A DNA stretch of 64,000 bases from Elsinoe ampelina (taxonomy: Eukaryota): NCBI GenBank assembly GCA_010093995.1, contig ML992504.1, forward strand, positions 1,392,885-1,456,884. Direction: 5' to 3'. The notes under the pieces were generated by a model. It made no database searches. It worked only from the letters and a program-made list of their open reading frames with translations, and had not been told where the DNA came from. This document shows positions 1,920 to 26,562 of this stretch, in pieces (within the stretch, counting starts at the first letter, position 1; each line of letters starts with the position of its first letter). The translations under genes and the position numbers were made by a program.

Positions 1920-3850
1920 ATGGGTTCCACCGGACCACTCTATATCGTAAGAGGCCGATTTTACCCCGCCGCTGTCTAAATTGCTCTCTCTAATCGCGAC
2001 GACAGGGGTTTGACTTGTCAACACAACAATTGAAAGGTCACTATATCATCAAAGGATATTACATCGGTCCTCAAGCTTATTTCTTACAGCTCTCGTTGTC
2101 AACTCCAATCTCAAATTGCAACATGAAGCAAAAGTGTCCTTTGATGATGACCTGTCCAAATATGGCGTCAAGAAGGGTGTTCTCACCAATCCATTGGAGG
2201 GCGAGATCTTCGCACCAGTCGCTATGTGGCTAGATGCCATTGAGCTGGTCTTGTCTCGACTTCGTGATGCTGGCTGCGACTTCTCCCTGATCAAGGGTCT
2301 GTCCGGCGCCGGCATGCAGCACGGCACCGTCTTCTGGAGTCTGGAGGCAGAAAAGCTGTTAGCCAGCCTTGACCACACCAAGTCTTTAAAGGACCAGCTC
2401 GAGCCTAGCGATCAGGTAGATGCACGACACGGAGCATTCAGTCATCCACATAGTCCAAATTGGCAAGACGCAAGCACGCAGAAACAGTGCGATGCGTTTG
2501 ATGCCGAGCTCGGTAGTCCTCAAGTTCTGGCAAAGGAGACTGGCAGCAAAGCACATCACGTGAGTCGATTGACATCCCCCCTTTCGATACGACTAACGCA
2601 AGTTACAGAGATTCAGTGGACCGCAGATCATGCGGTGGCGAGAAAAGTATCCACATGAGTGGAAGAAGACTTCCCGCATCTCTCTCGTCTCGTCTTTCAT
2701 CACGTCCGTCTTTCTCGGTAAGATTGCGCCTATCGATATTGGCGATGTCTGCGGCATGAACTTGTGGCACATTGACCAAGGTAAATGGCACGAGAAATTG
2801 TTGCAACTTGCCGCGGGCGGCCAGGACTCGTCCGACCTAAAGACGAAACTCGGTCATGTCCCTGAAGACGGCGGTACCGACCTGGGTACCATCAGCCCTT
2901 ACTTCACAAAACGATTCGGCTTCCCCGACGACTGTGCCATTCGCCCCTGCACCGGCGACAACCCCGCCACCATCCTCGCGCTCCCCCTCCTCCCCTCGGA
3001 CGCCATGGTCTCTCTCGGCACCTCCACAACCTTCCTCATGAGTACCCCGATGTACAAACCCGACCCATCCTACCACTTCATGAACCACCCCACAACCCCC
3101 GGCCTCTACATGTTCATGCTCTGCTACAAGAACGGTGGCCTCGCCCGCGAACAAATCCGAGACAACCTACCCAGCAAAACCTGGGACGAATTCAACTCCA
3201 CCGCCCTCTCCACCCCACCCCTCGCCAGCACCTCATCCTCCCCCGCCCGTCTCGGCCTCTTCTTCCCCCGCCCCGAAATCGTCCCCAACGTCCGCGCCGG
3301 CCAATGGCGCTATGAATACGACTCGGCCTCCGACAACCTGTCCCCCGTGAGCTCCGACCCGGTGGAGTCCGACGCCCGCGTCATCGTCGAGAGCCAAATG
3401 CTCTCCCTCCGCCTGCGCAGCCAGGGCCTCGTCCACCCGCAGAAAGACAAGGACGGGAACACCCTCCCCGCCCAGCCTCGACGTGTCTACCTCGTCGGCG
3501 GCGCGAGCTCGAACCTGGCCATCGCGAGGATCGCGGGGGACGTACTCGGTGGTGCGGAGGGCGTGTTTAAGCTCGACATCGGCGGGAATGCGTGTGCGTT
3601 GGGTGCGGCGTACAAGGCGGTGTGGGGGTGTGAGAGGAGGCAGGGGCAGAGTTTTGAGGATTTTATCGGGGGGAGGTGGGATGAGGATGAGTTTGTTGTG
3701 AGGATCACGGATGGGTACAGGAAGGGAGTGTTTGAGAGGTATGGTGAGGCGCTGAAGGGGTTTGAGAGGATGGAGGCGGAGGTTTTGAAGCAGGCGGGGA
3801 ATGAGAGGGTGGAGTTGACGGGTGGGGTGGTGCATCATCCTGCTTCTTGA
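1920..3850 (+). CDS. XKS1: D-xylulose kinase (FGGY family)
   Basis: Exons 1920-1946 (MGSTGPLYI), 2006-2036 ([10 protein letters not shown]), 2090-2559 and 2609-3850. Motifs [59 protein letters not shown]. Confidence 0.95.
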
Positions 3851-4298
3851 GGGGAGGAGCACTTGGTCTTGTTTGTGGAGGAGCAGGAGACGAGACGCTG
3901 TATTCAAATTGCACACTTACCCTGAGTGCATACCAGGTGATTGAGTCGCAGCAATACATCAATCAACAACCCTCTCGACCTGTCAATCATTTGAAGCAAG
4001 AACTTGACGACTTCAAACCTCACTTTTGCTCTCGTCCAAAGAAAGATCCACTCACATGAAACAGATGTATAGAGTAGACTATCCGTATGTGACATGCGCA
4101 CACGACTTTGCTGACTCAAAAGCTGGTCTCCCGTGCACGACATAGACCCGATAACGAAGCCCCACACGCGCTGTCTACACACACATGCATTTGCTACAAT
4201 TTGCTATATGGCAAAAAGCTGATGGAGAGAATCTAATACATTACCACAACTTAATGAAGTCGTCCTTACTTGCATTTGTAGAAAGCTTCGAGCGGCCG

Positions 4299-4306
4299 AA
4301 AAAAAA
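4299..4306 (-). terminator. RNA polymerase III oligo-dT terminator of the tRNA-Arg gene
   Basis: T8 run on the minus strand, 15 nt after the discriminator base (4322). Confidence 0.8.
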
Positions 4307-4346
4307 TTGTGGTTCCGTCCATGATCGTACCAGGGGTCGAACCTGG

Positions 4347-4396
4347 CTGTGGCCGGGTTAGTTTTGATTTTAGCCATGTGTAGAAGTATCACTAAC
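4347..4396 (-). other. Spliceosomal-type intron 3 in tRNA-Arg (variable loop/T-stem junction, 48/49), 50 nt
   Basis: GTTAGT...AAAACTAACCCGGCCACAG: donor, CTAAC branch point, CAG acceptor. Confidence 0.88.
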
Positions 4397-4407
4397 AATC
4401 TCTTGAT

Positions 4408-4444
4408 GAAATTTTGCCGTTCCCAACTGGAGAACTGGGCTCAA
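4408..4444 (-). other. Canonical (endonuclease-type) tRNA intron at 37/38, 37 nt
   Basis: TTGAGCCCAGTTCTCCAGTTGGGAACGGCAAAATTTC sits one nt 3' of the ACG anticodon and has no GT-AG ends. Removing it restores a 7-nt anticodon loop. Confidence 0.85.
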
Positions 4445-4452
4445 TCGTAGTC

Positions 4453-4500
4453 CTGAGCCGATTAGGTGTGTCCAATTGGACCTGGGTCGAATATGCTTAC
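4453..4500 (-). other. Spliceosomal-type intron 2 in tRNA-Arg (anticodon stem, 29/30), 48 nt
   Basis: GTAAGC...ACACCTAATCGGCTCAG: donor, CTAAT branch point, CAG acceptor. Confidence 0.88.
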
Positions 4501-4511
4501 AAGCGCCTTGC

Positions 4512-4562
4512 CTGAGAACGTATTAGACCAGGAACTCGGCTGGGAAGCGAGAATCCACTCAC
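4512..4562 (-). other. Spliceosomal-type intron 1 in tRNA-Arg (D-loop, between G18 and G19), 51 nt
   Basis: GTGAGT...GGTCTAATACGTTCTCAG: donor, CTAAT branch point, CAG acceptor. Confidence 0.88.
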
Positions 4563-4600
4563 CATTGGGCCATACGACCTCAATTGATGCTCTAGCCAAA

Positions 4601-4620
4601 AGTTTTAAAATATATATTCC
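4601..4620 (-). promoter_or_regulatory. TATA-like AT-rich tract upstream of the tRNA gene
   Basis: GGAATATATATTTTAAAACT lies about 22-41 nt upstream of the mature 5' end, where TFIIIB/TBP usually binds. Confidence 0.55.
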
Positions 4621-5446
4621 AGTAATTGCACAGTCGTGGCAGCTACACGTGACTGAGCGGCCCATACGCAACAATGAGCATGAATAGTGGTACCTGCGAT
4701 CATTGCATGCACGCTACAGCGTGCTGAGAGGCGTCCTAGACCGTATCACGAGGTTCTTGGCTTGATTTGTCGATGTTCCAGGAAATTTCCTACTTGCCAC
4801 AGATCATCGTGTTTGGTCTCATTTGCTCGCTCTATGGCAAGCACAAAGACACATTCCACACAGTCCATTTTGCGTGCCACGAACAGCGGCATCGCTCAAC
4901 CAGCCTGGTATTTTCTCGGTATCGAGGTCATGCTCCAGAGGGGCTTAGCAGTCTCCGAGTAGTCTCTAGCGGACCATAGTGGCGTATTGATGAAGTCAAG
5001 AGCGTCGCGAACCAGCCCGTCTCATCCTTCACGACATGGCGGTGGTAGGCAGAGACTCCAGCAACCTACGTCGGCAGAGGTTCTGGCTAGGGAGCAATCG
5101 AAAGTGGCATTGGCTGCTATCACGCAGAACGATCGGTGTATACAACGGTGAAGGCCCCCTGATTGTCGTTGTCGCCTATCGCTGAGTCATCGCTTGGTGG
5201 CGGTGAGAACAAAGAAACGCACCCTGTACAATGCGATAGGGCATTAGACGGGCTCAGATGCTAATCACCACGATAGGAACAGGAACTAGGATGGAGCCAA
5301 GTGCTTCGTATATACAATGAGCAGACATGTCCCAATATGTACATCCCTACCAGCATCCATGAAAAGCTCGAAGTGATCGCTGATGATGACCACCTCAACG
5401 CCCTACCTATTGCCAACACTACCAGAACCTGATACCACTACTTCCT

Positions 5447-8400
5447 TCACCTCTTCCCAACGTTACCACTAGCATGCCTCAAATGCCTCGGCACCATCGG
5501 CTCCGCCGTCCTCACCTTACTCTGCAACCCCTCCAACCCCGTCCTCCTCTCACCCCAATCACTCTTCGCCGGCTCATCCACACTCCTATTATCCAAACTC
5601 CTCCTCCCACCTGCCACATCCTGCTCAACCTGCTCCGACCGAGAATCCAGATCAAAACCCCTCTGCCCAGTCCGTTTGGCACCCCTACCACTCAACCCAA
5701 CCTGCTCCCCATCCCCTCGTCGAGACTGGTCCGCCTCCGGACTCCCCCTCGAATACAGCGGCGAGTCCCTCTCCCTCAACGGACTCCTCGGCGGCACCTG
5801 CACCTCCTCCTCCGGCAACAGCGCCCAAGGCTGATCCCTCGGGCTCTGCGGCGTCCTCTCCGCCCTCGGCGGGACGTACGCCGATCCCGTATCTCTCCTC
5901 GGCCGCCCCGCCTCCGCAAGAGGACTACTACTCCTCGCACTCACCTTGCTCACCCTCCTCTGCGTCGGCGCTCGTCCCGCCGGACTATCCACACTACGCA
6001 TGTCGAAACTCCCCCTCAAATCAGCAGGGCTCGACTGCCCCACGCTCGCCGCCTTCTCCGTCTCGAGGCGTTCGCTCTCCTCCTCGATCTTGTGCATGCG
6101 CTGCTCGAAGCTATCCGGCGCGATGCCGAGGTCGCCGCTGAGAGCGTCCTTGTCGCCGAGCAGGCGGGAGATGGCCTCGTCGTAGCTGGCGTTGAGAGTG
6201 GCGAATTCAGCGGCGTGGTTGAGTGCGATTTGGGACTTGCGTTTGGCGAGGGCGTGGTGATGTTGGGCTTCGAGGCGGGATTCGGCTCGTCGGAGTTCTT
6301 CCTTTTTGGTCTTGAGGTCGTGGAGGGCGTGGGGTCTGGCGGGCTTGCGCTCGGCGGTGTCGGGTGGGGTGGGGAGGTCGCCGTATTGGGCTTTGAGCTC
6401 TTCTTTCTCCTTTCGCAGGCGCTCGGCTTCCTGGCCTTCAGCGGCCTCTTCGAGGATCTTCCTTTCCGACACGAGATCGTCGAACTTCTGCTTGTACTCC
6501 TTGGAAAGAGTGTCCTTTGCCATCTGGAGGTCGCCGACATGCTGAGCAATCTTGGCTGCGAAGGCTGCTTCGTTCTGGCTGATGACTTTGCCGAGCTCTG
6601 ACAGTTCTGATTGAGCGTGCTGGAGATACTCCTCGAAGGATCTTGCCGAGATGGGTCTATCGCTGGTGTCCAAATCTCGGGAGGTATTTACTGTCTTACC
6701 ATCAGGAGTCACAGGTCGACCATTGATTGCTCGAACAGTCCGATTGGTATCTGGCGATGGCAGTGCCGAGCCTTGGAAGGAAGCGGCCTGCGCACGGCTC
6801 TCCTTGAGCGCCCTCCTCAGCTTTCTGATTGTATGTTGCAGCTCATGCGTGTCTTCGTGCTTGGTCCGATCCAGCTCCACTGTCGTTTCGGTAAGCTTAG
6901 CAGACATGTTCTCCACATGCTTGGCCAACTCGTCCCTCTCACTGACTAGTCTCAGTACCTTCTCAGCCTCCTTCGCTCGCTCCTCCTCAGCACTTGCCAC
7001 TCTTCTCTCTACCTCAGCCAACCTCGCGACAGCATCATCGCCCTCGGTTCTTCCTTTCTGTAGCCCTTCCAGTTCTCCTACCAGTCGACTTTTCTCTTCG
7101 ATGGCTTTACTCTCCCCCTCCAAGGCTCTCGCTACTGCTCTTTTCAACTCGGCGACCGTACCATCTCTCTCTCTTGCGACCTGGCTCATCGACTCTCGAA
7201 GCTCTTGCTCAGCTGACCGAAGTATGTTAACTCGCTCGGTCTCCTCTGCCGCTCGTCGTCTTGCCTCGTCGAGCTGTGCCTTCAGCTCAGCTTGCTTCCT
7301 CTCGTGACTTTCTTCATCTTGCTTACGTTGTTCTCGCATGGAGTTGATCTCGCGGACCAGTCGTTCCGAGTCATCAGCTAGCTTCTGATGATCTGCGAGT
7401 GTCGAGCTAAGCTTCTCTTGCACAACGGACTGTTCCTTTGCCAGCTTGGATCGGAGATTCTCGAGCTCTGCCCGATGAGCATTATCGGCCTCCTTAGCAG
7501 ATTGCGTGAAATGCGTCTCCACTTCGGAGACCTTGCGACTGTGACTCTTTTCCTTCTCCTCCATTTGCGCATACAGCTTAGACTCTAAGGCTTGCATGGC
7601 TTGAACCTGAGCATTGCATTCTTGCTCGAGGGCTTCGGTGTGAGATTTGCGAGTCTCCTCAAGTTCATGAGTCAGCGAATCCCTGGTCTTTTGGAGCTCT
7701 TGCTGGTGACTGGCCGTGAGGTCATTGATCTTCTCCTCGTTGATCTTGCGGAGACGTTGCACTTCCCCAAAATGCTCCTCTTTAGCTTGTCTAATGGCAG
7801 TCTGCAACTTCTCCGCATGCGACTCGATGAGACTCTTTCGAATGGTACTGGCCTCACCCTTCAACTTCTCCAGATCGGCTTGGTGGCTATTTTTGGCAGC
7901 AGTGAGGTCGATCTGGTGCTTCTCGCGCAGTCGCGCCAGGTCCTTCTGATGCTGTTGTAGCAGCTGTGCAGAAGAGGTGTCGGACGTTTCTCTGGCCTTC
8001 TGAAGACGCTCGTTGTAAGATCGCTCGGCTTCCTCGAGCTCATCTTTGTGCTTGGCAGTCAGACCCTTAAGCTCGGATTCATGGGACTCCTTGATCCTGC
8101 TGTGCTCATTCTCAGCAACATTCAGCTTATCCTGGAGCGCCGTCAGAGCCCTTTGATGCTCGTCCTTCAGAGACTTGAGATCAGTTCCGTGCTGGTCCTC
8201 TCTATTGCGAGCTTCCTCCTCACGCTCTTGGATCGTTGCTTTGAGCGCTCCGATCTCCTTGTCGTGTCTCTCTTCCAGCTCTTCCAACCTAGCTTCATGT
8301 CCGGACCGAGTAGTGATGAGCTGGTGATTGGCGCTCTCGATTTCAGACCTTGTAATGCCCAGCTCCTTCGCATGTGACGCGTGGACATCCTGAAGATGTT

Positions 8401-11400
8401 TTGCGTGGAAAGCTTTGATTTGCTCCACCTCAGCAGCGGCACGCTTTCTCAGTTTCTCAAGCTCGTCTGCATGGTTCTTCTTGGTTTCTTGCAATGTTGC
8501 CATCTTATCTTTCTGAGCAAGGCTTCGGACCTCATCAATCGCTCTGGAATGTTCTTCCGATCTGGCGGAAAGCGTCGATTTGTGTTCCTTGAGTGTGGTA
8601 TTCAGTCGTCCTTGAAGCAAGCTGTACGCATCCTCGTGTTCACGACTCTTTGCGGAGAGGGCCCCTTCATGAGATGTCTTGAGATCCTCCAGCTGCTTTC
8701 CGTGCTGTGATTGCAGATCAGACATTCTAGAATCGTGTTCAGAGCGCAATGCGGCTAATTGCTTCTCGTGCTCAGTCATTGCAGCGTTGATCTGAGCAGT
8801 CAAAGATTGCTCTTTCTCTTGGTGTTTCCGTTGCAGAGCCGTCTGCTCTTCCTGATGAGATTTCTTGAGGTTGGCCACCGTCTGCTCCGCTTGTTCATGA
8901 GCCCCTCGGATGTCTTCCTCAGATTTGGCTTGCATCTCTGCGAAATGTTTTTCAAAAGTGGCTTTCTCCTCCTCGAACACCCGGCGCAGCTCTGCGATTT
9001 GCTTGCCATGTGCTTCTTGTGTCTTCTTGAAGTCCGCTTCGGCTCTTGCCTGTACGTTCTTGACTTCGGCTTCGAGTGCGGATTTTTGTCCCTGATGCTT
9101 CTCGTTTAGCTCTGCCAACCGCTTTTGAGACTCCTTGTGGGCATGCTCCAGATCCTCGACCGCCTTGAACTGCGCATCCTTGAGCCGACTTTCCAGTTGC
9201 GACTTCTCTCTGTCATGCTTGGACTTGAAATCTGCAAGGTGTTTGTCGGCGTCGTTTCGGACCTTCGTAATATCGGCATCAGCAGAGTTGCGAAGATCAG
9301 CAATCTGCTTCTCTAGATCCGACCTCTCAGAACCATGCTTGTTCGTCAAGTCCTCGATCTGGCTCTCAAGGGTTGATCTTTCCGAGCCATGCTTTGCATT
9401 CAGGTCCTGGATTTGCTTCTCCGTGTAGTCCCGAACGACCTTCAGATCAGATTCGGCCTTCGTGAGCAGGTCTTGGACATGCTTCTCGTGCTGTTGCTCC
9501 AAATCAGATCGCTCCGATGTGAGCTTCTTCGTCTCCAACTCGTGAGTGGTGGTCAGCTCCTTCTGTCGGACTTCGGCGTTTTTTTGCGCCTGTTGGACAT
9601 CGGATTTTGCCTTTTCTTGAGCTTCGGTAATCTGCTTCATGAGATTGGCGGTAACGGTGGCTACCTTTTCCTTCATGGAGCGTTCTACTTTCTGCTTCTC
9701 GAGTAGCAAGCCACTCCTGTCCTGCTCGTGTGACGACTTGAGATCGGACATCGCACGTTCATGATCAAGTTTCGCTCTATTGATAGCTTCCGAAGCTTGA
9801 GTCTTTGCAGTGGCCAGTTCCGACTCCAGTGACGATCTTGTTGATGCAATTTGCTCACGTAGATTCTTCTCTGATTCTCCACGTTTGCGTTCAATATCAG
9901 ATAGTTGTTCCTGGTGTGCTTTCGCAAGTTCAGAGAGCTTACGATCTGACGTCTCTGTAGCGTCCTTAAGCTCTTTCGCATGAGTGGTTTTGGTCTCACT
10001 TAGATCTCGTTCGGCAGCGTGCTTGGCGGCGGCGATGAGGTCTTGTAAGGCCTTTTCTCTCCGCTCGTGGGCCGAGTTGAGGGCCTCCTTCTCCTTTTCG
10101 AAGTCGTTTCGCAGCCGATCGAATTCCTGCCCCTGCTTCAGCTCGGCAGCTTTCACGTCTTCCGCAGCAGCGGTCTTTGCCTTTTCCAGGTCTTCACCAA
10201 GCTGGTTGACCTTGCTTTCGAGACCCTTACGAGCCCCACTGAGATCCTTGACTTCTGCGCTCAGCTTGGCGATTTCCTGGTCTCTCTCCTCTATCCTGCC
10301 ACGTAAGCGATCAACAGTCTTGGACAAATCCTCGCTCTCATCCCAGGCCTTATCGAGTAGACCTTGCATATCCTTCTCCTTTTTCGCAGCATCTTTCTTC
10401 AGGTGCTCCAACTCGTCCTTCGTCAGGTTGAAATGCTTATTGGTGTCGGCAAGTCGAGCAGCGAGGCCAGCTAGCTGTCCCTTCAGACTATCCTTATCCT
10501 TCCCACTAGCGTTACGAACGATGCTGAGCTCCACTTGGGCCTTCTCGAGCTCAACCTTGAGCGAAGATTTCTCCCGCTCAAGCTCCCTTGTCAGCTCATG
10601 GAGCCGAGTCTCCGCTTCTGAGGCTCGTTGATGCTCTGACTCGTACGCAGCACTTTGCCTCTTGGCGTCCTCCAAGGAGGAGTCCAATTGGCGCTTGAGG
10701 GTGGCAATGGTCTCATGTGATGTGGATAAATCCAAGTCTCTTTTCTTCACGTCCGCAGCGCTAGCATTGATCTGCTCCTGTTTGGACTTGTGCTGAATTT
10801 GTAGAGTGCGCAGTTCGCTAACTTTGCTGTCCAATTCAGATTCGAGCTTGGAATGTAGTGACTCGAGATCCGTCAATTGTTTACTTGCCGTGGCATGCTT
10901 TGATTCGAGATCTTTGACCTTGTTGTTTGACGACTGCAAGGTTTGCTCAAGACTGGTGTGCTTCTTAGCAAGTTCACCATGCGACTTTTCTGAGGCATCG
11001 AGCTTTTGCTGTAATGATTGTGTGGAAGATAGACTGGCCGACTGCTGCTTCTGGAGTGATGCATGATTAGACTGCAGATCTGCAAGACTCTTTTTGATCT
11101 CCTGATTCTGAGCCTTGAGGTCGTCGAGGTGCTTCTGTAATCTGTCTGCATTCTTCAAAGCCTCGGTCCTTTCGTCATTGGCCTCATCGATACGACGCTC
11201 TGCATCTTCGAGCCATTCTTCACGTTCTCGCTTGATCTTATCAATGTCCTGCTTTAGCATCTCTACCTCCTTGGCATGCTCCGTCAACTCGACATCAACT
11301 TCGCTCTCAGAGTCGGAATCGACAGGATCTCTGACCACACTTGGAGCTGCCAAGTTGGCCTTCCGTAGTCGCCGCTTTAGACGGTCAAGCTCTTTTAAAA

Positions 11401-11617
11401 TTTGACTCTGGCTGACCTGGACTCTTGTCGTCCTCCTGAACACTTGGTGACTGATTCCTTCCTCGGGACCAGCATGACCCATGGCGATGAGCTCCTTGAT
11501 ATGGTCGACATCTTTTGCCAGAGTGGCGGGGTCGTGGAGGCCGGAATCTGTGGACAGCAATGAACTCGTACTCTGAGCCAACAGATCATGCCCGCTGCCT
11601 ACTGGCGAAGCACTCAT
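5447..11617 (-). CDS. Very large intronless coiled-coil protein (~2056 aa), function unknown
   Basis: Single ORF with first ATG at 11617 (MSASPVGSG). Near-continuous E/K/L/Q/H heptad-like composition and a disordered S/P/R-rich C-terminus. Confidence 0.85.
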   Translation of the reverse strand: MSASPVGSGHDLLAQSTSSLLSTDSGLHDPATLAKDVDHIKELIAMGHAGPEEGISHQVFRRTTRVQVSQSQILKELDRLKRRLRKANLAAPSVVRDPVDSDSESEVDVELTEHAKEVEMLKQDIDKIKREREEWLEDAERRIDEANDERTEALKNADRLQKHLDDLKAQNQEIKKSLADLQSNHASLQKQQSASLSSTQSLQQKLDASEKSHGELAKKHTSLEQTLQSSNNKVKDLESKHATASKQLTDLESLHSKLESELDSKVSELRTLQIQHKSKQEQINASAADVKKRDLDLSTSHETIATLKRQLDSSLEDAKRQSAAYESEHQRASEAETRLHELTRELEREKSSLKVELEKAQVELSIVRNASGKDKDSLKGQLAGLAARLADTNKHFNLTKDELEHLKKDAAKKEKDMQGLLDKAWDESEDLSKTVDRLRGRIEERDQEIAKLSAEVKDLSGARKGLESKVNQLGEDLEKAKTAAAEDVKAAELKQGQEFDRLRNDFEKEKEALNSAHERREKALQDLIAAAKHAAERDLSETKTTHAKELKDATETSDRKLSELAKAHQEQLSDIERKRGESEKNLREQIASTRSSLESELATAKTQASEAINRAKLDHERAMSDLKSSHEQDRSGLLLEKQKVERSMKEKVATVTANLMKQITEAQEKAKSDVQQAQKNAEVRQKELTTTHELETKKLTSERSDLEQQHEKHVQDLLTKAESDLKVVRDYTEKQIQDLNAKHGSERSTLESQIEDLTNKHGSERSDLEKQIADLRNSADADITKVRNDADKHLADFKSKHDREKSQLESRLKDAQFKAVEDLEHAHKESQKRLAELNEKHQGQKSALEAEVKNVQARAEADFKKTQEAHGKQIAELRRVFEEEKATFEKHFAEMQAKSEEDIRGAHEQAEQTVANLKKSHQEEQTALQRKHQEKEQSLTAQINAAMTEHEKQLAALRSEHDSRMSDLQSQHGKQLEDLKTSHEGALSAKSREHEDAYSLLQGRLNTTLKEHKSTLSARSEEHSRAIDEVRSLAQKDKMATLQETKKNHADELEKLRKRAAAEVEQIKAFHAKHLQDVHASHAKELGITRSEIESANHQLITTRSGHEARLEELEERHDKEIGALKATIQEREEEARNREDQHGTDLKSLKDEHQRALTALQDKLNVAENEHSRIKESHESELKGLTAKHKDELEEAERSYNERLQKARETSDTSSAQLLQQHQKDLARLREKHQIDLTAAKNSHQADLEKLKGEASTIRKSLIESHAEKLQTAIRQAKEEHFGEVQRLRKINEEKINDLTASHQQELQKTRDSLTHELEETRKSHTEALEQECNAQVQAMQALESKLYAQMEEKEKSHSRKVSEVETHFTQSAKEADNAHRAELENLRSKLAKEQSVVQEKLSSTLADHQKLADDSERLVREINSMREQRKQDEESHERKQAELKAQLDEARRRAAEETERVNILRSAEQELRESMSQVARERDGTVAELKRAVARALEGESKAIEEKSRLVGELEGLQKGRTEGDDAVARLAEVERRVASAEEERAKEAEKVLRLVSERDELAKHVENMSAKLTETTVELDRTKHEDTHELQHTIRKLRRALKESRAQAASFQGSALPSPDTNRTVRAINGRPVTPDGKTVNTSRDLDTSDRPISARSFEEYLQHAQSELSELGKVISQNEAAFAAKIAQHVGDLQMAKDTLSKEYKQKFDDLVSERKILEEAAEGQEAERLRKEKEELKAQYGDLPTPPDTAERKPARPHALHDLKTKKEELRRAESRLEAQHHHALAKRKSQIALNHAAEFATLNASYDEAISRLLGDKDALSGDLGIAPDSFEQRMHKIEEESERLETEKAASVGQSSPADLRGSFDMRSVDSPAGRAPTQRRVSKVSARSSSPLAEAGRPRRDTGSAYVPPRAERTPQSPRDQPWALLPEEEVQVPPRSPLRERDSPLYSRGSPEADQSRRGDGEQVGLSGRGAKRTGQRGFDLDSRSEQVEQDVAGGRRSLDNRSVDEPAKSDWGERRTGLEGLQSKVRTAEPMVPRHLRHASGNVGKR

Positions 11618-12435
11618 GGCTGTGATGATGGCGAGATTCCTAGTCAAAGGGTCCCGGCATAGATCAAGCAGAGGTCGTTCTGGGGCGAGACATTTCTCTC
11701 TTTAACGGTGAAACTCGATGTTGGTGGAGAGCTCGAAAAAAGAGAGCTATCATGCAATGTTGGTGAGATGAGAGAAGGGCAAACAGAGGTGATGAACAGA
11801 GCGACAGGGTATGGAACAGAAATCTCTCCAAACTCTTCCATGTCCATCCGAGCCCTCGATATCAAACAGTCGAATCTTCAATCTACCCCTCCGTTCAGCC
11901 GCATGGACACAGATCTCGAAAAAATGGCGGCGGCCCAAGCTCTCGCCGCGTCTTTGCAGCGAAATGACATGGTTCCCGATCTGCCCCACTCTGTTTTCGC
12001 AGATCGATCTATGACGCCTGGCGAGCTGATTTGCGTTTTTGATGATTCCTGCTCCCGATCGCTTGCTCGCATTTCACATGTCAATTTGGCCTGTGATGCG
12101 GCTTAGCAGGCCCAATCGTGCCAATGTCGGCGCCTACTGGCGCACACCGTGGTGGCTTGGCTGGCATTGACCAGAGGGCAGACCGGCGAGCCCTCTGCTG
12201 CCCTTGACATGTGCCTCGCCGGTCCACGTCAGTGTCCGTCATTCAAAAAACAACAGAGACCCTGGACGTTGGTGATGGAGCTTTTGGCAAACACGGTACA
12301 GTAGGCTCCAGCTGTCATAGCGAAGACGGAAGGAAGCAGCGTGACCACCACATCTAGACCACTTATAGATTGACAATGCTGCTCGTAAGCAACTTTGTCA
12401 ATCCTTTTGCTCGACCTACCTTTTTCAATTCCTTC

Positions 12436-18810: not shown

Positions 18811-21260
18811 TCACCCCAGAGTGCGAGTGCTGACACTCACGCCAGTACCAGAAGGCATGCCTGATCGACCGCTGTGTACCGAACTGTAATCTGAGCCATG
18901 ACTTCGATGGCTGGGCCGTCGCTGATCCCATTTGTCCTCGTTCAACGCAGTCAGCCAACCGCTTCCAAGGTCGTTCTTGAGCGCTTCAATCTTCTGGCGA
19001 TAGACATCGCTTGCCATGTTCATCTCGTCTGAGGCCTGAACAGGAGAGTCAGAGTCGTCGACCAGGTCGGGAGTCGTATGAGATGATGAAGAAGGAAGCG
19101 TTGATGTCTCAATAGGCGGCAGAAGAGGCGCAGTATGCTTGCCCTGAGATGTTGAACCACCAACTCGAGCATCGGGAACAGCCTTTGTAGGGGAGTGCGC
19201 CTCTGCGTGAGGCGTATCCACTCTTCTGGTCTCTGGAGAGGACGGATTGCTCTGCGACAATTCTACGATCCTTCTTCGTGGTGCCTTGCGACGTTGTGCT
19301 GTATCATAACCACCGGCCTCTCTCGGCGTGTCCTTTGCAGGTACTGGCGGCGGCTTCTGAGGTAAAGCAGGTGGCGGCATAGAAATGTCGTCTGGCTTGC
19401 GCACGACTGGCATGTTTTGCTCTTCGGTTATGCGATCAATGAGATATTTTTTCTCTCCATAGGTTGGTCCCGTAGAATCAATGCAGATGTCCTCTGTATA
19501 GCCGACAGAGGATCGAAAGAGGTTGAAAATGGTAGTACGATAATTCGAATGTGTACGAACGAAAGGATTGCGGTGGACGTAGACGTGCTGCATATCGGGA
19601 ATGCGAGTCAGTCTAGCCAGCTCGGTGGGATCAGTAAGTCTATTGTCGCGGAGATCAATCTTCTCCAATGAGAACAATCTCTCAATGCCTGCAAGAGAAG
19701 ACAGCCTGTTGGAGTGGAGATTGATGACCGTGATGGCGGGAAGGGGGTTCCGGGCCAATGAGTGGAGACTGCTGATCATGCAGTTGGACAAGTTGAGAGC
19801 GCGGAGGTTGGTGAGACTTGCAAGACTATCGGGTATCTCGGTAAACCAATTGCTGGACAAATCGAGGGAATGCAAGGTACTTGCTAAAGGAGCAAGACCA
19901 GCGGCAAGAATGAAAGTCATGCCATTGTCGGCAAGACTGAGATGTTTGAGGAATCGCCACTTGCTAGGCTGAAGAGTGCCGAGCGAGAGCAGATTGGACG
20001 AGCTGTTACGAGGAGTAGAGTGAACGCTGGAGCTGTCACTGCCTGACGATCTCCTGTACTTTGGTGTCGCGCTTCTAGGATAGATGTGGGAGGTTTGCCT
20101 TGAGCTAGGCGGGCGCGCTGGAGACTGGCTGCGCTGCCTGTGATGTCTCGTGGGTTTCTTGCCTTCCGCAGAGCCCTTCCTAGCCATAGCCGCGGATGGA
20201 GGGCTGCCGAGAGACGCCCTTCTCGCTTCATTGAGCGGGGAGGTCGGCGCAGAGAATTGATCGAGTTGCTTTGCGCTTGGGCTGGGCGCAGGCCATGGTG
20301 TCGCCGGCGAAGATGGAACTGGGTGTTTCGAAGATCTTCTCCTGCGCTTGTCCATATCGTCCAGCACAATGTGTACGAGTAGATCTGTCACATCGTCGAC
20401 ATTGCCTCTCTTGATCGTCAAGCTGCGCAATTGCTCAGCCAGGCGATCCCATCCGTACATCTGTCGAAAGTCCAAATCGCAGATCTCCAATGCGCTCAAA
20501 TTCTTGAATGCAAAGAGCGGTACCGCAGTGTCAAAGGGAAACTCCTCGTATCCAGCGATGAGCCTGGATCTATGATCGGGAGCCAGTCGCAGACATGGGA
20601 TCTTTGTAAAGGCAGAGTACAAGTACTTGAGATCGTCCTGCTCTGCAGCCTTTTGCTTCTCGATCTTGCTATCCTCCTTTGAGGTCAGCCCGAGCTTCGT
20701 CCACATAGATGACATGGTCGACAAGGCGCTTCGGACACTGGAGACAGAGTGGATCGAGTCGGCGTCTGATCTGCCTCGCGACTTGGGCGCTGATCCCAAG
20801 AAGGAGACATAGTTACCAGGTTGGACATCACTGTTGATATTCTCCAGACGAACATTCATGGGCCCGACAGATATCCCTAGCTCTTCAAATCGTGATAGCA
20901 GGTAGAACAGATGGTGCGGCGTAAGAGTCAACTTGACAGGTTTGACACTCTGGGATCCGAAAGTCAAATATGGCAGAGAGAGGGCAGCTGCTATGGCGTT
21001 TGTTCCAGTAGCCGGTGGTTGTTGACCAGACACGCCCGTCGCGGCCGTGGTCGATGATGTAGATGCATTCTTGGTGTGTTTCCTCTGCAATTGAAGCGCG
21101 TTTGCGAGAGCCTTTTCGTGTGTCCGAACAAAGTATGCGAGATGCTACACGTGGGAGAAAGGTTAGCGTGACTGATAAGAAGAGCGCAAGCTCGTGACAG
21201 CGCATGCAGAGCAAACAGGGTGCGAACCTTTATGAAGACTTTTCCATCCTCAGTGTCCAT
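18811..21260 (-). CDS. Leucine-rich repeat protein (conserved fungal, nischarin-like LRR)
   Basis: MDTEDGKVFIK, intron 21227-21145, then HLAYFVRTHEKALANALQ. LRRs such as LHSLDLSSNWFTEIP, LRALNLSNCMISSL, LEKIDLRDNRL. Confidence 0.85.
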
Positions 21261-24168: not shown

Positions 24169-24749
24169 TGTGTCGAGTGTAGAGCTAGGTCGACGAAGCT
24201 GTCAATGAGGGACAAATTCCAAGCTAAATTGATTTCGTGAAGCGCGTTTTGACGCGCCAGAGCAAACCCCCACAAGGGCCCCACGTTTCAATCAGAATTG
24301 GCTAATTCGCCAGCCAAACTTGTTTAACGAGTCATGGTTAAACTTGTCTTGAAGTCATCACGCGCCGGCATCCTCGGTCTGTATTGGAACAGACTACGAC
24401 TTCACTCTTCTGATCCACGCCTTTTGCAGGACACTGACTTTACTCTTGAATCATATGCTGTATAAAATTCGCTGTACAGATTTCTGGTCCACCCAAAAAT
24501 TGCCTGGTGACCTTTCAAAGGAGTGGCGACTGAACCCTCTCCACCGAGACGCGATTGTCCTTGCAGCAAGAGAAATCCACGCTTCTACAACATTGGCACC
24601 AAAAGCTTGGAAGCAAGGACTGATACGATGTGGTGATTGACATTCCTCGCCAAAAGAAGACGCACCCTTGCTCGGAGCTGTCCCGATAACTTGGGCGAAC
24701 TCGAGACTTTTCAATGACCATCTCCAACTGAAGTCACTCTTTTGGCATC

Positions 24750-26562
24750 ATGTTCGCTGGACGACATCATCGTTTCTTTGTCATTACGGCCTGCTTCCTG
24801 GTCACGCTCTATTTCTATGGCACCAAGATCAGTACAGGCAACTTCAACTTTTTCACGGGCAAGGTCCTCGGATCACAAGGCTTCAGGTGGAAGGACTTAC
24901 CATTGAAGTATCCGCCTGCACGGCTGACGCCTTTGCCCGCGGGACCTCCTCAATCTCTTCCGAAGGTGCAGTACCAGTTCGGGAAGGATTCTGACGCTGA
25001 TCGCGAAAGTCGCTCGTCACGCCAGGATGCTGTCAAAGAAGCCTTTCTCCGGTCCTGGAAATCGTACAAGTCCCATGCATGGTTGGCTGACGAGCTGATG
25101 CCGGTTAGTGGGAACGCAAAGCACAATTACGGTGGATGGGGCGCTTCTCTGGTCGACAATCTCGACACTTTATGGATAATGGGCCTCAAGGACGAATACC
25201 ACGATGCTGTCGAGGCTGCCCTGCAAATTCGGTGGGACAAGACTGTCACGCAGGAGCTCAACGTGTTTGAGACCACTATACGCTACCTTGGAGGGTTTCT
25301 TGCCGCCTTTGATCTCAGTCAGGACAATCGCTTGCTGGAAAAGGCTGTCGAGCTCGGCGACATGCTGCTAGTCGCTTTTGACACTCCTAATAACTTGCCC
25401 ATAACTCGTTGGCGACTTCATGATGCTCGGCGTCGCTACGATCAAGAAGCTCACGAGACTGTCATTGTGGCAGAGATCGGCAGCTTGAGCATGGAATTCA
25501 CTCGACTGTCTCAGCGCACTGGTGACAACCGGTACTTCTCCGCCATCGATCGTATCACTCGCGTTTTCGCCGAGCAGCAGAATAGTACGATGCTTCCCGG
25601 CGTATGGCCTGTAATCGTCAATGCCAGAAACACCAACTTCACCGAGCAAAACACCTTCACCTTAGGTGGCATGGCCGACAGCGTCTTCGAATACCTACCA
25701 AAGATGCACGCTTTGCTTGGAGGGACTGATCCGGTATATGCAGACATGTATCGAACCTTCTCCGCAACAGCATTGAAGCACAACATTGTCCGACCCATGT
25801 TACCAGACGAGAAGGATGTTCTGCTGAGCATAGACATTGTGGTCAGGGAGAGCGGTATCTACGTGCACGAGCAAGGTCAACACCTAGTCTGCTTCGCAGG
25901 TGGCATGTTTGCGCTAGCGGGCAAGCTACTTTCTCTCCCCGAGCACGTACAAGTAGGCAAGAAGCTGACCGACGGCTGCGTCTGGACCTACCGTGCCATG
26001 CCTGTTGGTATCATGCCCGAGATCTTCTCGATGGCTACATGTCCTCGGACAGATCCTTGTCCATGGAACGAGACAAGGTGGAAGAGCGAAGTCATCCGAC
26101 AGCGTGCCACCGATCAAAGCGTTGAGGATGCAGATCGTTTCATCCTGGCTGACCGATTACCGAAAGGCTTCACCGGGATCAGAGACAGGAGATATCTCCT
26201 TCGGCCAGAAGCGATCGAGAGCGTCTTCATCCTGTACAGGATAACGGGCGACAAGTCATACTTGGACACAGCATGGGGTATGTTTGAGAATATCCTCAAG
26301 GCGAGCTGGACAAATCTAGCCAATGGAGTCGTCAACGATGTTAGCGTGGCGAAAGAGGATGTCACTGTTGGGGACGTCATGGAGAGCTTCTGGATGGCAG
26401 AGACATTGAAGGTGAGATCGCCACATGCCGCGAGCGAATGTATGCTGATATGTACAGTACTTCTACCTCATCTTCAGCGAGCCGGATCTACTGAGCCTGG
26501 ACGAGTACGTCTTCAACACGGAAGCACATGCATTTAGGCGGCCAACAGCATCGGTCAGCTAG
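24750..26562 (+). CDS. Class I alpha-1,2-mannosidase, GH47
   Basis: N-terminal signal anchor. Motifs NVFETTIRYLGG, AEIGSLSMEF, ADSVFEYL, LRPEAIES, MESFWMAETLK, then intron 26412-26457 and YFYLIFS...FNTEAH. Confidence 0.93.

Follow-up and report, generated by a model that had tools for sequence, protein, structure and literature searches.

We analysed a window of 64,000 nucleotides (nt) from Elsinoe ampelina (GenBank assembly GCA_010093995.1, contig ML992504.1, positions 1,392,885 to 1,456,884 of the forward strand; all positions below are those of the window). At 4322-4579 on the minus strand, downstream of a gene for an FGGY kinase and convergent with it, lies a split gene for transfer RNA (tRNA)-Arg(ACG). 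A first-pass annotation, made from the letters alone, had described it as interrupted by three spliceosomal introns, and direct reading of the sequence matched its coordinates and borders exactly. Exon 1 (4563-4579, 17 nt) holds tRNA positions 1-18, with the 5' strand of the acceptor stem, U8, the 5' strand of the D stem, A14 and G18. Intron 1 (4512-4562, 51 nt; GTGAGT..CTAAT..CAG) follows in the D loop, between tRNA positions 18 and 19. Exon 2 is a micro-exon (4501-4511, 11 nt; tRNA positions 19-29), whose 11-letter string is unique in the window. Intron 2 (4453-4500, 48 nt; GTAAGC..CTAAT..CAG) interrupts the anticodon stem between positions 29 and 30, and exon 3 (4445-4452, 8 nt) supplies positions 30-37, including the anticodon ACG. 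The next insert (4408-4444, 37 nt) has no GT..AG ends and occupies the place of a classical tRNA intron, at position 37/38. Beyond it come exon 4 (4397-4407, 11 nt; positions 38-48), intron 3 (4347-4396, 50 nt; GTTAGT..CTAAC..CAG; between positions 48 and 49) and exon 5 (4322-4346, 25 nt), which carries the T arm, the 3' strand of the acceptor stem and the discriminator A. All of these features are on the minus strand.

The five exons were joined by coordinate in a script and given to ARAGORN, which called the 72-nt product as tRNA-Arg(acg). When only the three GT..AG inserts were removed, the call was again tRNA-Arg(acg), now with an anticodon-loop intron of 37 nt that is usual in position and length. 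The joined product has an acceptor stem of 7 bp and, besides the D and T arms, an anticodon arm with a 7-nt loop. The conserved bases were right at 15 of 15 positions (U8, A14, G18, G19, A21, Y32, U33, R37, G53, T54, T55, C56, R57, A58 and C61), bearing out the cloverleaf that had been claimed for a cut at the GT/AG borders. Standard pairs form at 20 of the 21 stem positions; the sole exception, C13.A22, is shared with an ordinary fungal tRNA-Arg(ACG) in the metagenome locus L001. Relative to that tRNA, the differences in the stems are paired changes that keep the pairing at 28-42, 50-64 and 51-63, a sequence pattern that argues for selection on the folded product.

Left uncut, the genomic locus gave no call in ARAGORN, and no tRNA was called anywhere else in the window. 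Rfam found nothing in the window at gathering thresholds, and its tRNA model RF00005 had no match to 4100-4800 even at an E-value of 10. The expectation that standard finders would miss the gene was therefore correct. The comparison of spliced and genomic sequence proposed with it came out as predicted in ARAGORN, which calls the spliced 72-mer and nothing on the genomic stretch; for RF00005 the outcome is its silence on the genomic locus.

The three GT..AG inserts all carry U2-type signals (3 of 3), namely 5' GTRAGY, a CTAAY branch and 3' CAG. The branch adenosine lies 9-11 nt from the 3' end, as against 12 nt in two verified messenger RNA (mRNA) introns. In size the inserts (48-51 nt) match the three introns of the FGGY kinase mRNA that RNA data verify, which measure 49, 53 and 59 nt, so that the likeness to the mRNA introns of this window, noted from the letters alone, was upheld. 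A run of four T is absent from all four inserts of the tRNA gene. Two other identities were considered and rejected. Bulge-helix-bulge introns were sought as two 3-nt bulges around a 4-bp helix at the borders, allowing shifts of 0-3 nt; of its 4 pairs, the central helix formed at best 2 in intron 1, 3 in intron 2 and 2 in intron 3, and the flanking helices had 0-2 pairs. An introner-like repeat family was rejected as well, the four inserts having no match longer than 14 nt elsewhere in the window or to one another.

None of the sequencing runs available was recorded as RNA, and the RNA nature of three of them (X3, X4 and X5) was deduced from mRNA joints in the FGGY kinase gene. Contigs of each of these runs skip 1947-2005, 2035-2087 and 2560-2608 with GT..AG ends (59, 53 and 49 nt, respectively). 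Because they carry these three joints, X3, X4 and X5 hold spliced mRNA. At the tRNA locus X5 and X6 each contribute a single contig, of 201 and 222 nt, respectively, X6 being from a different study and under a different organism label. Being assemblies, these contigs do not give strand or abundance. The X5 contig lies on 4214-4346 and the X6 contig on 4199-4346, and both then jump to 4397-4452. Exactly 50 nt are missing at this joint; their ends read CT..AC on the plus strand, hence GT..AG on the minus strand, and the joint is free of ambiguity (both=0). In one X5 and one X6 contig, intron 3 has thus been removed exactly at the predicted GT/AG borders. Beyond 4452 each contig carries 12 loose letters, the first 11 of which are those of exon 2 (4501-4511; 11 of 11). 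Position 4452 therefore runs directly into exon 2, and intron 2 is absent from both contigs. The 37-nt insert at 4408-4444 is retained in these same contigs, and all aligned bases are identical to the window (189 in the X5 contig, 204 in the X6 contig).

Two of the three exon junctions that the first-pass annotation had named for checking were accordingly recovered, 4397/4346 as a listed joint and 4501/4452 through the loose letters, while 4563/4511 lies outside the contig cover. No run covers exon 1 or intron 1, and X3 and X4 have no contig over 4222-4620; nothing is concluded from these gaps. Sequence, cloverleaf and RNA-derived contigs agree on a tRNA-Arg(ACG) gene with three introns of spliceosomal type and a classical intron, and the presence at the locus of three spliceosomal introns together with one endonuclease-type intron is supported. 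Elsewhere in the same data, X4, X5 and X6 have contigs that agree with the window only along 35 bases of the FGGY gene (3213-3247, plus strand; 5 differences), between long flanks unrelated to it. A motif conserved in a paralogous kinase gene probably accounts for this.

The role of chance was assessed by taking out GT..AG segments of 40-70 nt three at a time, in all non-overlapping combinations, and running the products through ARAGORN. In 40 random 331-nt segments of the window, none of 43,110 such products was called. At the real locus calls were obtained in 67 of 302 triple removals, all anchored on one and the same acceptor and T arm. This shows that the locus is not due to chance. Once a product contains an acceptor and T arm, ARAGORN with option -i calls leniently, and the triple-removal test does not settle the exon-intron borders on its own; for this reason it is the RNA joint, rather than ARAGORN alone, that fixes them. 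The full intron-signal pattern, at 40-80 nt, had 13 matches on both strands of the window, 3 of which are the tRNA inserts. With 8.5 +/- 3 matches in shuffled sequence, such a pattern is no rarity in itself; the unusual feature is the clustering and exact placement of three such patterns.

Elements resembling those of a gene transcribed by RNA polymerase III (Pol III) lie on the minus strand. The A-box-like 11-mer TGGCCCAATGG (4572-4562) is uninterrupted in the DNA because intron 1 starts with G, and it is identical to the A box of the ordinary tRNA-Arg(ACG) genes in loci L001, L002 and L005. The B box GGTTCGACCCC (4343-4333) is intact inside exon 5, about 229 nt from the A box. A run of eight T (T8; 4306-4299), resembling a Pol III terminator, begins 16 nt past the 3' end of the tRNA. 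Upstream, at -37 to -24 from the first tRNA base, is a TATA-like element TATATATTTTAAAA (4603-4616) with a putative promoter role. Taken by their sequence, the intact A box, B box, T8 and TATA-like block would fit continued Pol III transcription. A 3' trailer is covered by contigs over 4062-4321: the part from 4199 (X6) or 4214 (X5) to 4321 is contiguous with the spliced exons, and 4062-4221 comes from a separate X3 contig that could belong to either strand.

Folding was used to look at the precursor forms. With the cloverleaf enforced, the 109-nt form that keeps the 37-nt intron lies within 1.7 kcal/mol of the optimum and shows the mature domain with an extended anticodon-intron hairpin, in which the 3' splice site of the 37-nt intron falls in a 3-nt bulge. 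Unconstrained minimum free energy folding of the 109-nt and 258-nt precursors gave no cloverleaf anticodon arm, and folding was counted neither for nor against the gene.

We consider it highly likely that this is a real nuclear tRNA-Arg(ACG) gene, the transcript of which is spliced by the spliceosome at these introns. That the spliced locus additionally yields a working tRNA appears likely, with rather less assurance. Transcription would start just upstream of 4579; the sampled molecules continue past T8. The spliceosome would then take out the three GT-AG introns, as seen for introns 2 and 3 and presumed for intron 1. As long as these introns are in place, the D arm, anticodon stem and T arm would be unable to form, so that the structure itself would demand a spliceosome-first order. 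RNase P, RNase Z and the tRNA splicing endonuclease with its ligase would act next. The 37-nt intron would leave last, being still present in the contigs without introns 2 and 3. A spliceosome-first order agrees with the contigs. By general tRNA biology, CCA addition and A34-to-I34 editing would complete a decoder of CGU, CGC and CGA, the codons that tRNA-Arg(ACG) reads after this editing. In 13 open reading frames (ORFs) of the window, CGT, CGC and CGA account for 308 of the 643 arginine codons.

Several observations weigh against this reading. Removal of intron 1 was not seen: on the tRNA strand, the X5 contig has G as its twelfth loose letter, which fits the end of exon 1 as well as the end of intron 1, and the X6 contig has T, which matches neither of them. 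The terminal T of X6 could come from an alternative upstream donor, an adapter base or an error. Of these two runs, moreover, only X5 is independently shown to be RNA. The X5 and X6 contigs read through T8 and have a trailer of at least 108-123 nt, and transcripts passing T8 may be a by-product rather than a productive precursor. Such read-through fits RNA polymerase II (Pol II) transcripts or read-through molecules, which ordinary RNA sequencing libraries would favour. The base 3 nt before the 3' splice site of the 37-nt intron is T, so that C32 has no pairing partner, whereas the partner is present in L001; pairing with C32 aids cleavage by the yeast tRNA endonuclease. X4 and X5 also differ from the window by a base at 2359, which bears on a possible presence-absence polymorphism of the introns. 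Finally, no orthologous split locus was found among 80 fungal loci collected by FGGY kinase synteny (59-72% identity); at that identity these loci are too distant to contain the orthologous tRNA locus.

The passage of the RNA through T8 and the missing partner of C32 would both suit a relic tRNA gene inside a Pol II transcript, which the spliceosome splices and from which no functional tRNA is released, tRNA-Arg(ACG) being supplied by ordinary genes. We regard this as unlikely. After splicing every stem pairs, the conserved bases are all correct, and the differences from L001 are paired changes; the A box, B box and T8 are intact; and a perfect cloverleaf spread over five pieces would not be expected without constraint on the tRNA. 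A different explanation for the contigs is that the strains behind them lack introns 2 and 3 in their DNA, in which case no RNA splicing need be invoked. The study of X4 and X5 does differ from the window by base changes, and intron presence-absence polymorphisms are described in another Dothideomycete genus in the accessible part of PMC5647799. We nevertheless consider it very unlikely, since the contig alignments are identical to the window over 189 (X5) and 204 (X6) bases, two introns would need to be precisely absent in two data sets, and X5 demonstrably contains spliced mRNA. Precise absence at the GT/AG borders would in any case itself mark the inserts as spliceosomal introns.

Multi-intron tRNA genes of endonuclease type exist, and in Cyanidioschyzon merolae, too, the 37/38 intron is the last to leave, according to the available portion of PMC3978253. 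The inserts could by analogy with C. merolae and the Archaea be ectopic tRNA-type introns, cut by the tRNA splicing endonuclease, with coincidental GT..AG ends. This is highly improbable here: the borders do not fit a bulge-helix-bulge (2, 3 and 2 of 4 central pairs), full consensus at the 5' splice site, branch and 3' splice site occurs at mRNA-intron size in all three inserts, and the classical intron is retained in the contigs that have lost introns 2 and 3. A chance resemblance or an assembly artefact is scarcely credible. The leniency of ARAGORN -i, with 67 of the 302 triples at the locus called and one weak false call elsewhere, speaks for chance, but none of the 43,110 control triples was called, and the predicted joints are reproduced by contigs from two studies, which refutes chance as far as the present analysis reaches. 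Against an artefact, two DNA runs contain all sampled words of 3400-5800, though these runs are possibly the source of the window.

Relatives of the locus and further cases were sought. A pattern scan of metagenomes for the intron-3 junction gave 0 matches. Ordinary tRNA-Arg(ACG) genes with a 14-nt classical intron were found in three metagenome fungal contigs (L001:17-104, L002:5-92 and L005:2209-2296), about 1 kb upstream of the FGGY kinase orthologue and on the same strand. The split gene lies on the opposite side of the kinase and on the opposite strand from this arrangement. Shared ancestry of the window gene and these three tRNA genes, with a local inversion, is possible; orthology is not demonstrable because the large ORF neighbouring the split gene has no relative in those loci. 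A scan anchored on the T arm, over 579,527 bases (the window and the 80 loci), gave 7 candidates, of which 4 were ordinary tRNAs, 2 were chance matches and 1 was this locus. Within the window, ARAGORN did not detect a second split tRNA in 10,552 single and 5,793 paired GT..YAG removals. The calls made were the split tRNA-Arg locus, one opposite-strand call beside it and one tRNA-Asp-like call. The last of these, from a GT..YAG removal at 20298-20382 (plus strand), is poor, has no TTC loop and lies inside a leucine-rich-repeat ORF, and was judged a false positive.

Spliceosomal introns in genes for structural RNAs have precedents. They are known in U6, U2, U5 and U1 small nuclear RNA (snRNA) genes and in ribosomal RNA (rRNA) genes, and their determinants are unclear (PMC5855946, a 2018 review on U6, available in part). 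Examples given there are U6 of Schizosaccharomyces pombe and other fungi, U1, U2 and U5 of Rhodotorula hasegawae, and the rRNA genes of ascomycetes. The locus described here resembles these cases in having GT-AG introns with a branch site in a structural RNA gene; several introns in one small gene are known among them, and for a Pol III transcript spliced by the spliceosome S. pombe U6 sets the precedent (PMC5855946). The snRNA cases differ in that they are explained by nearness to the spliceosome's active site, which is inapplicable to a tRNA, and tRNA is not in the list in the part of PMC5855946 available. In contrast to the snRNA and rRNA cases, a second, unrelated splicing system must act on the same precursor here.

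The locus is likewise comparable to the disrupted tRNA genes of Thermoproteales and other Archaea, C. merolae and the Guillardia nucleomorph, which have several non-canonical cuts and are missed by standard finders (PMC3978253). The introns of those genes are of the bulge-helix-bulge type and are cut by the tRNA endonuclease, the only kind in the portion of PMC3978253 available, whereas the signals here are spliceosomal. The 37-nt insert matches, in position and length, the classical 37/38 tRNA intron that is processed by the endonuclease TSEN and tRNA ligase (PMC10275265, PMC12530127). Unlike in classical tRNA-intron genes, it is only one of four interruptions. If the precursor is a long Pol II transcript, a model for tRNA release is offered by mascRNA, a tRNA-like small RNA that RNase P and RNase Z cut from the Pol II transcript MALAT1; unlike the tRNA described here, mascRNA is non-decoding and has no introns.

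In the accessible parts of a 2023 review (PMC10275265) and a 2025 paper on intron loss (PMC12530127), spliceosomal and tRNA introns are kept apart as two classes, each with its own substrates. A description of tRNA genes with spliceosomal introns was not found in the full texts searched, which include few subscription journals, and the phrase 'spliceosomal introns in tRNA' was absent from them; an earlier report may exist outside that range. The locus combines two known kinds of gene, non-coding RNA genes with spliceosomal introns and multiply interrupted tRNA genes, in a way that would surprise both fields. A cloverleaf that needs prior action of the spliceosome would break the separation of the intron classes, and the capacity to translate roughly half the arginine codons would then depend on mRNA splicing. 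The locus would also provide a test case for the entry of spliceosomal introns into abundant structured RNAs and for the spliceosome on Pol III transcripts outside U6.

Elsinoe species are scab pathogens of crops with several published genomes. In practical terms, the case shows that for some fungi standard finders can give wrong numbers of tRNA genes. Only 43 tRNAs are given for a near-telomere-to-telomere genome of Elsinoe fawcettii, by tRNAscan-SE 2.0.9 (PMC12941528), and 361 for Podospora anserina (PMC2441463), both sources being available in part. The low count in E. fawcettii would fit genes hidden from standard finders and is taken as a lead only. It is conceivable, though we hold it doubtful, that Elsinoe makes an essential decoding tRNA only by way of the spliceosome and then the tRNA endonuclease, maybe from a Pol II-type read-through precursor, and that this gene is one of many hidden from tRNAscan-SE and ARAGORN, which would explain the 43 tRNA genes of E. 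fawcettii.

Among the neighbouring genes, the large ORF at 5450-11701 (minus strand) encodes 2084 residues. Its sole domain hint is an Apolipoprotein-like match, weak and below threshold, and the 80 fungal loci contain no relative. Starting inside this ORF, an X3 contig ends at 4621, 42 nt before the tRNA and about 830 nt past the stop codon. The Pfam families of the window are typical of filamentous ascomycetes and include RTA1, DUF3431, SPT23/MGA2, separase and GH47. By its protein matches, the GH47 ORF places the window in Elsinoe (Dothideomycetes) and points to E. batatas or a very near relative. The GH47 ORF (24732-26534, plus strand) has an identity of 98% with Elsinoe batatas, 80% with E. 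australis, 79% with Sphaceloma murrayae and 58% with Myriangium proteins.

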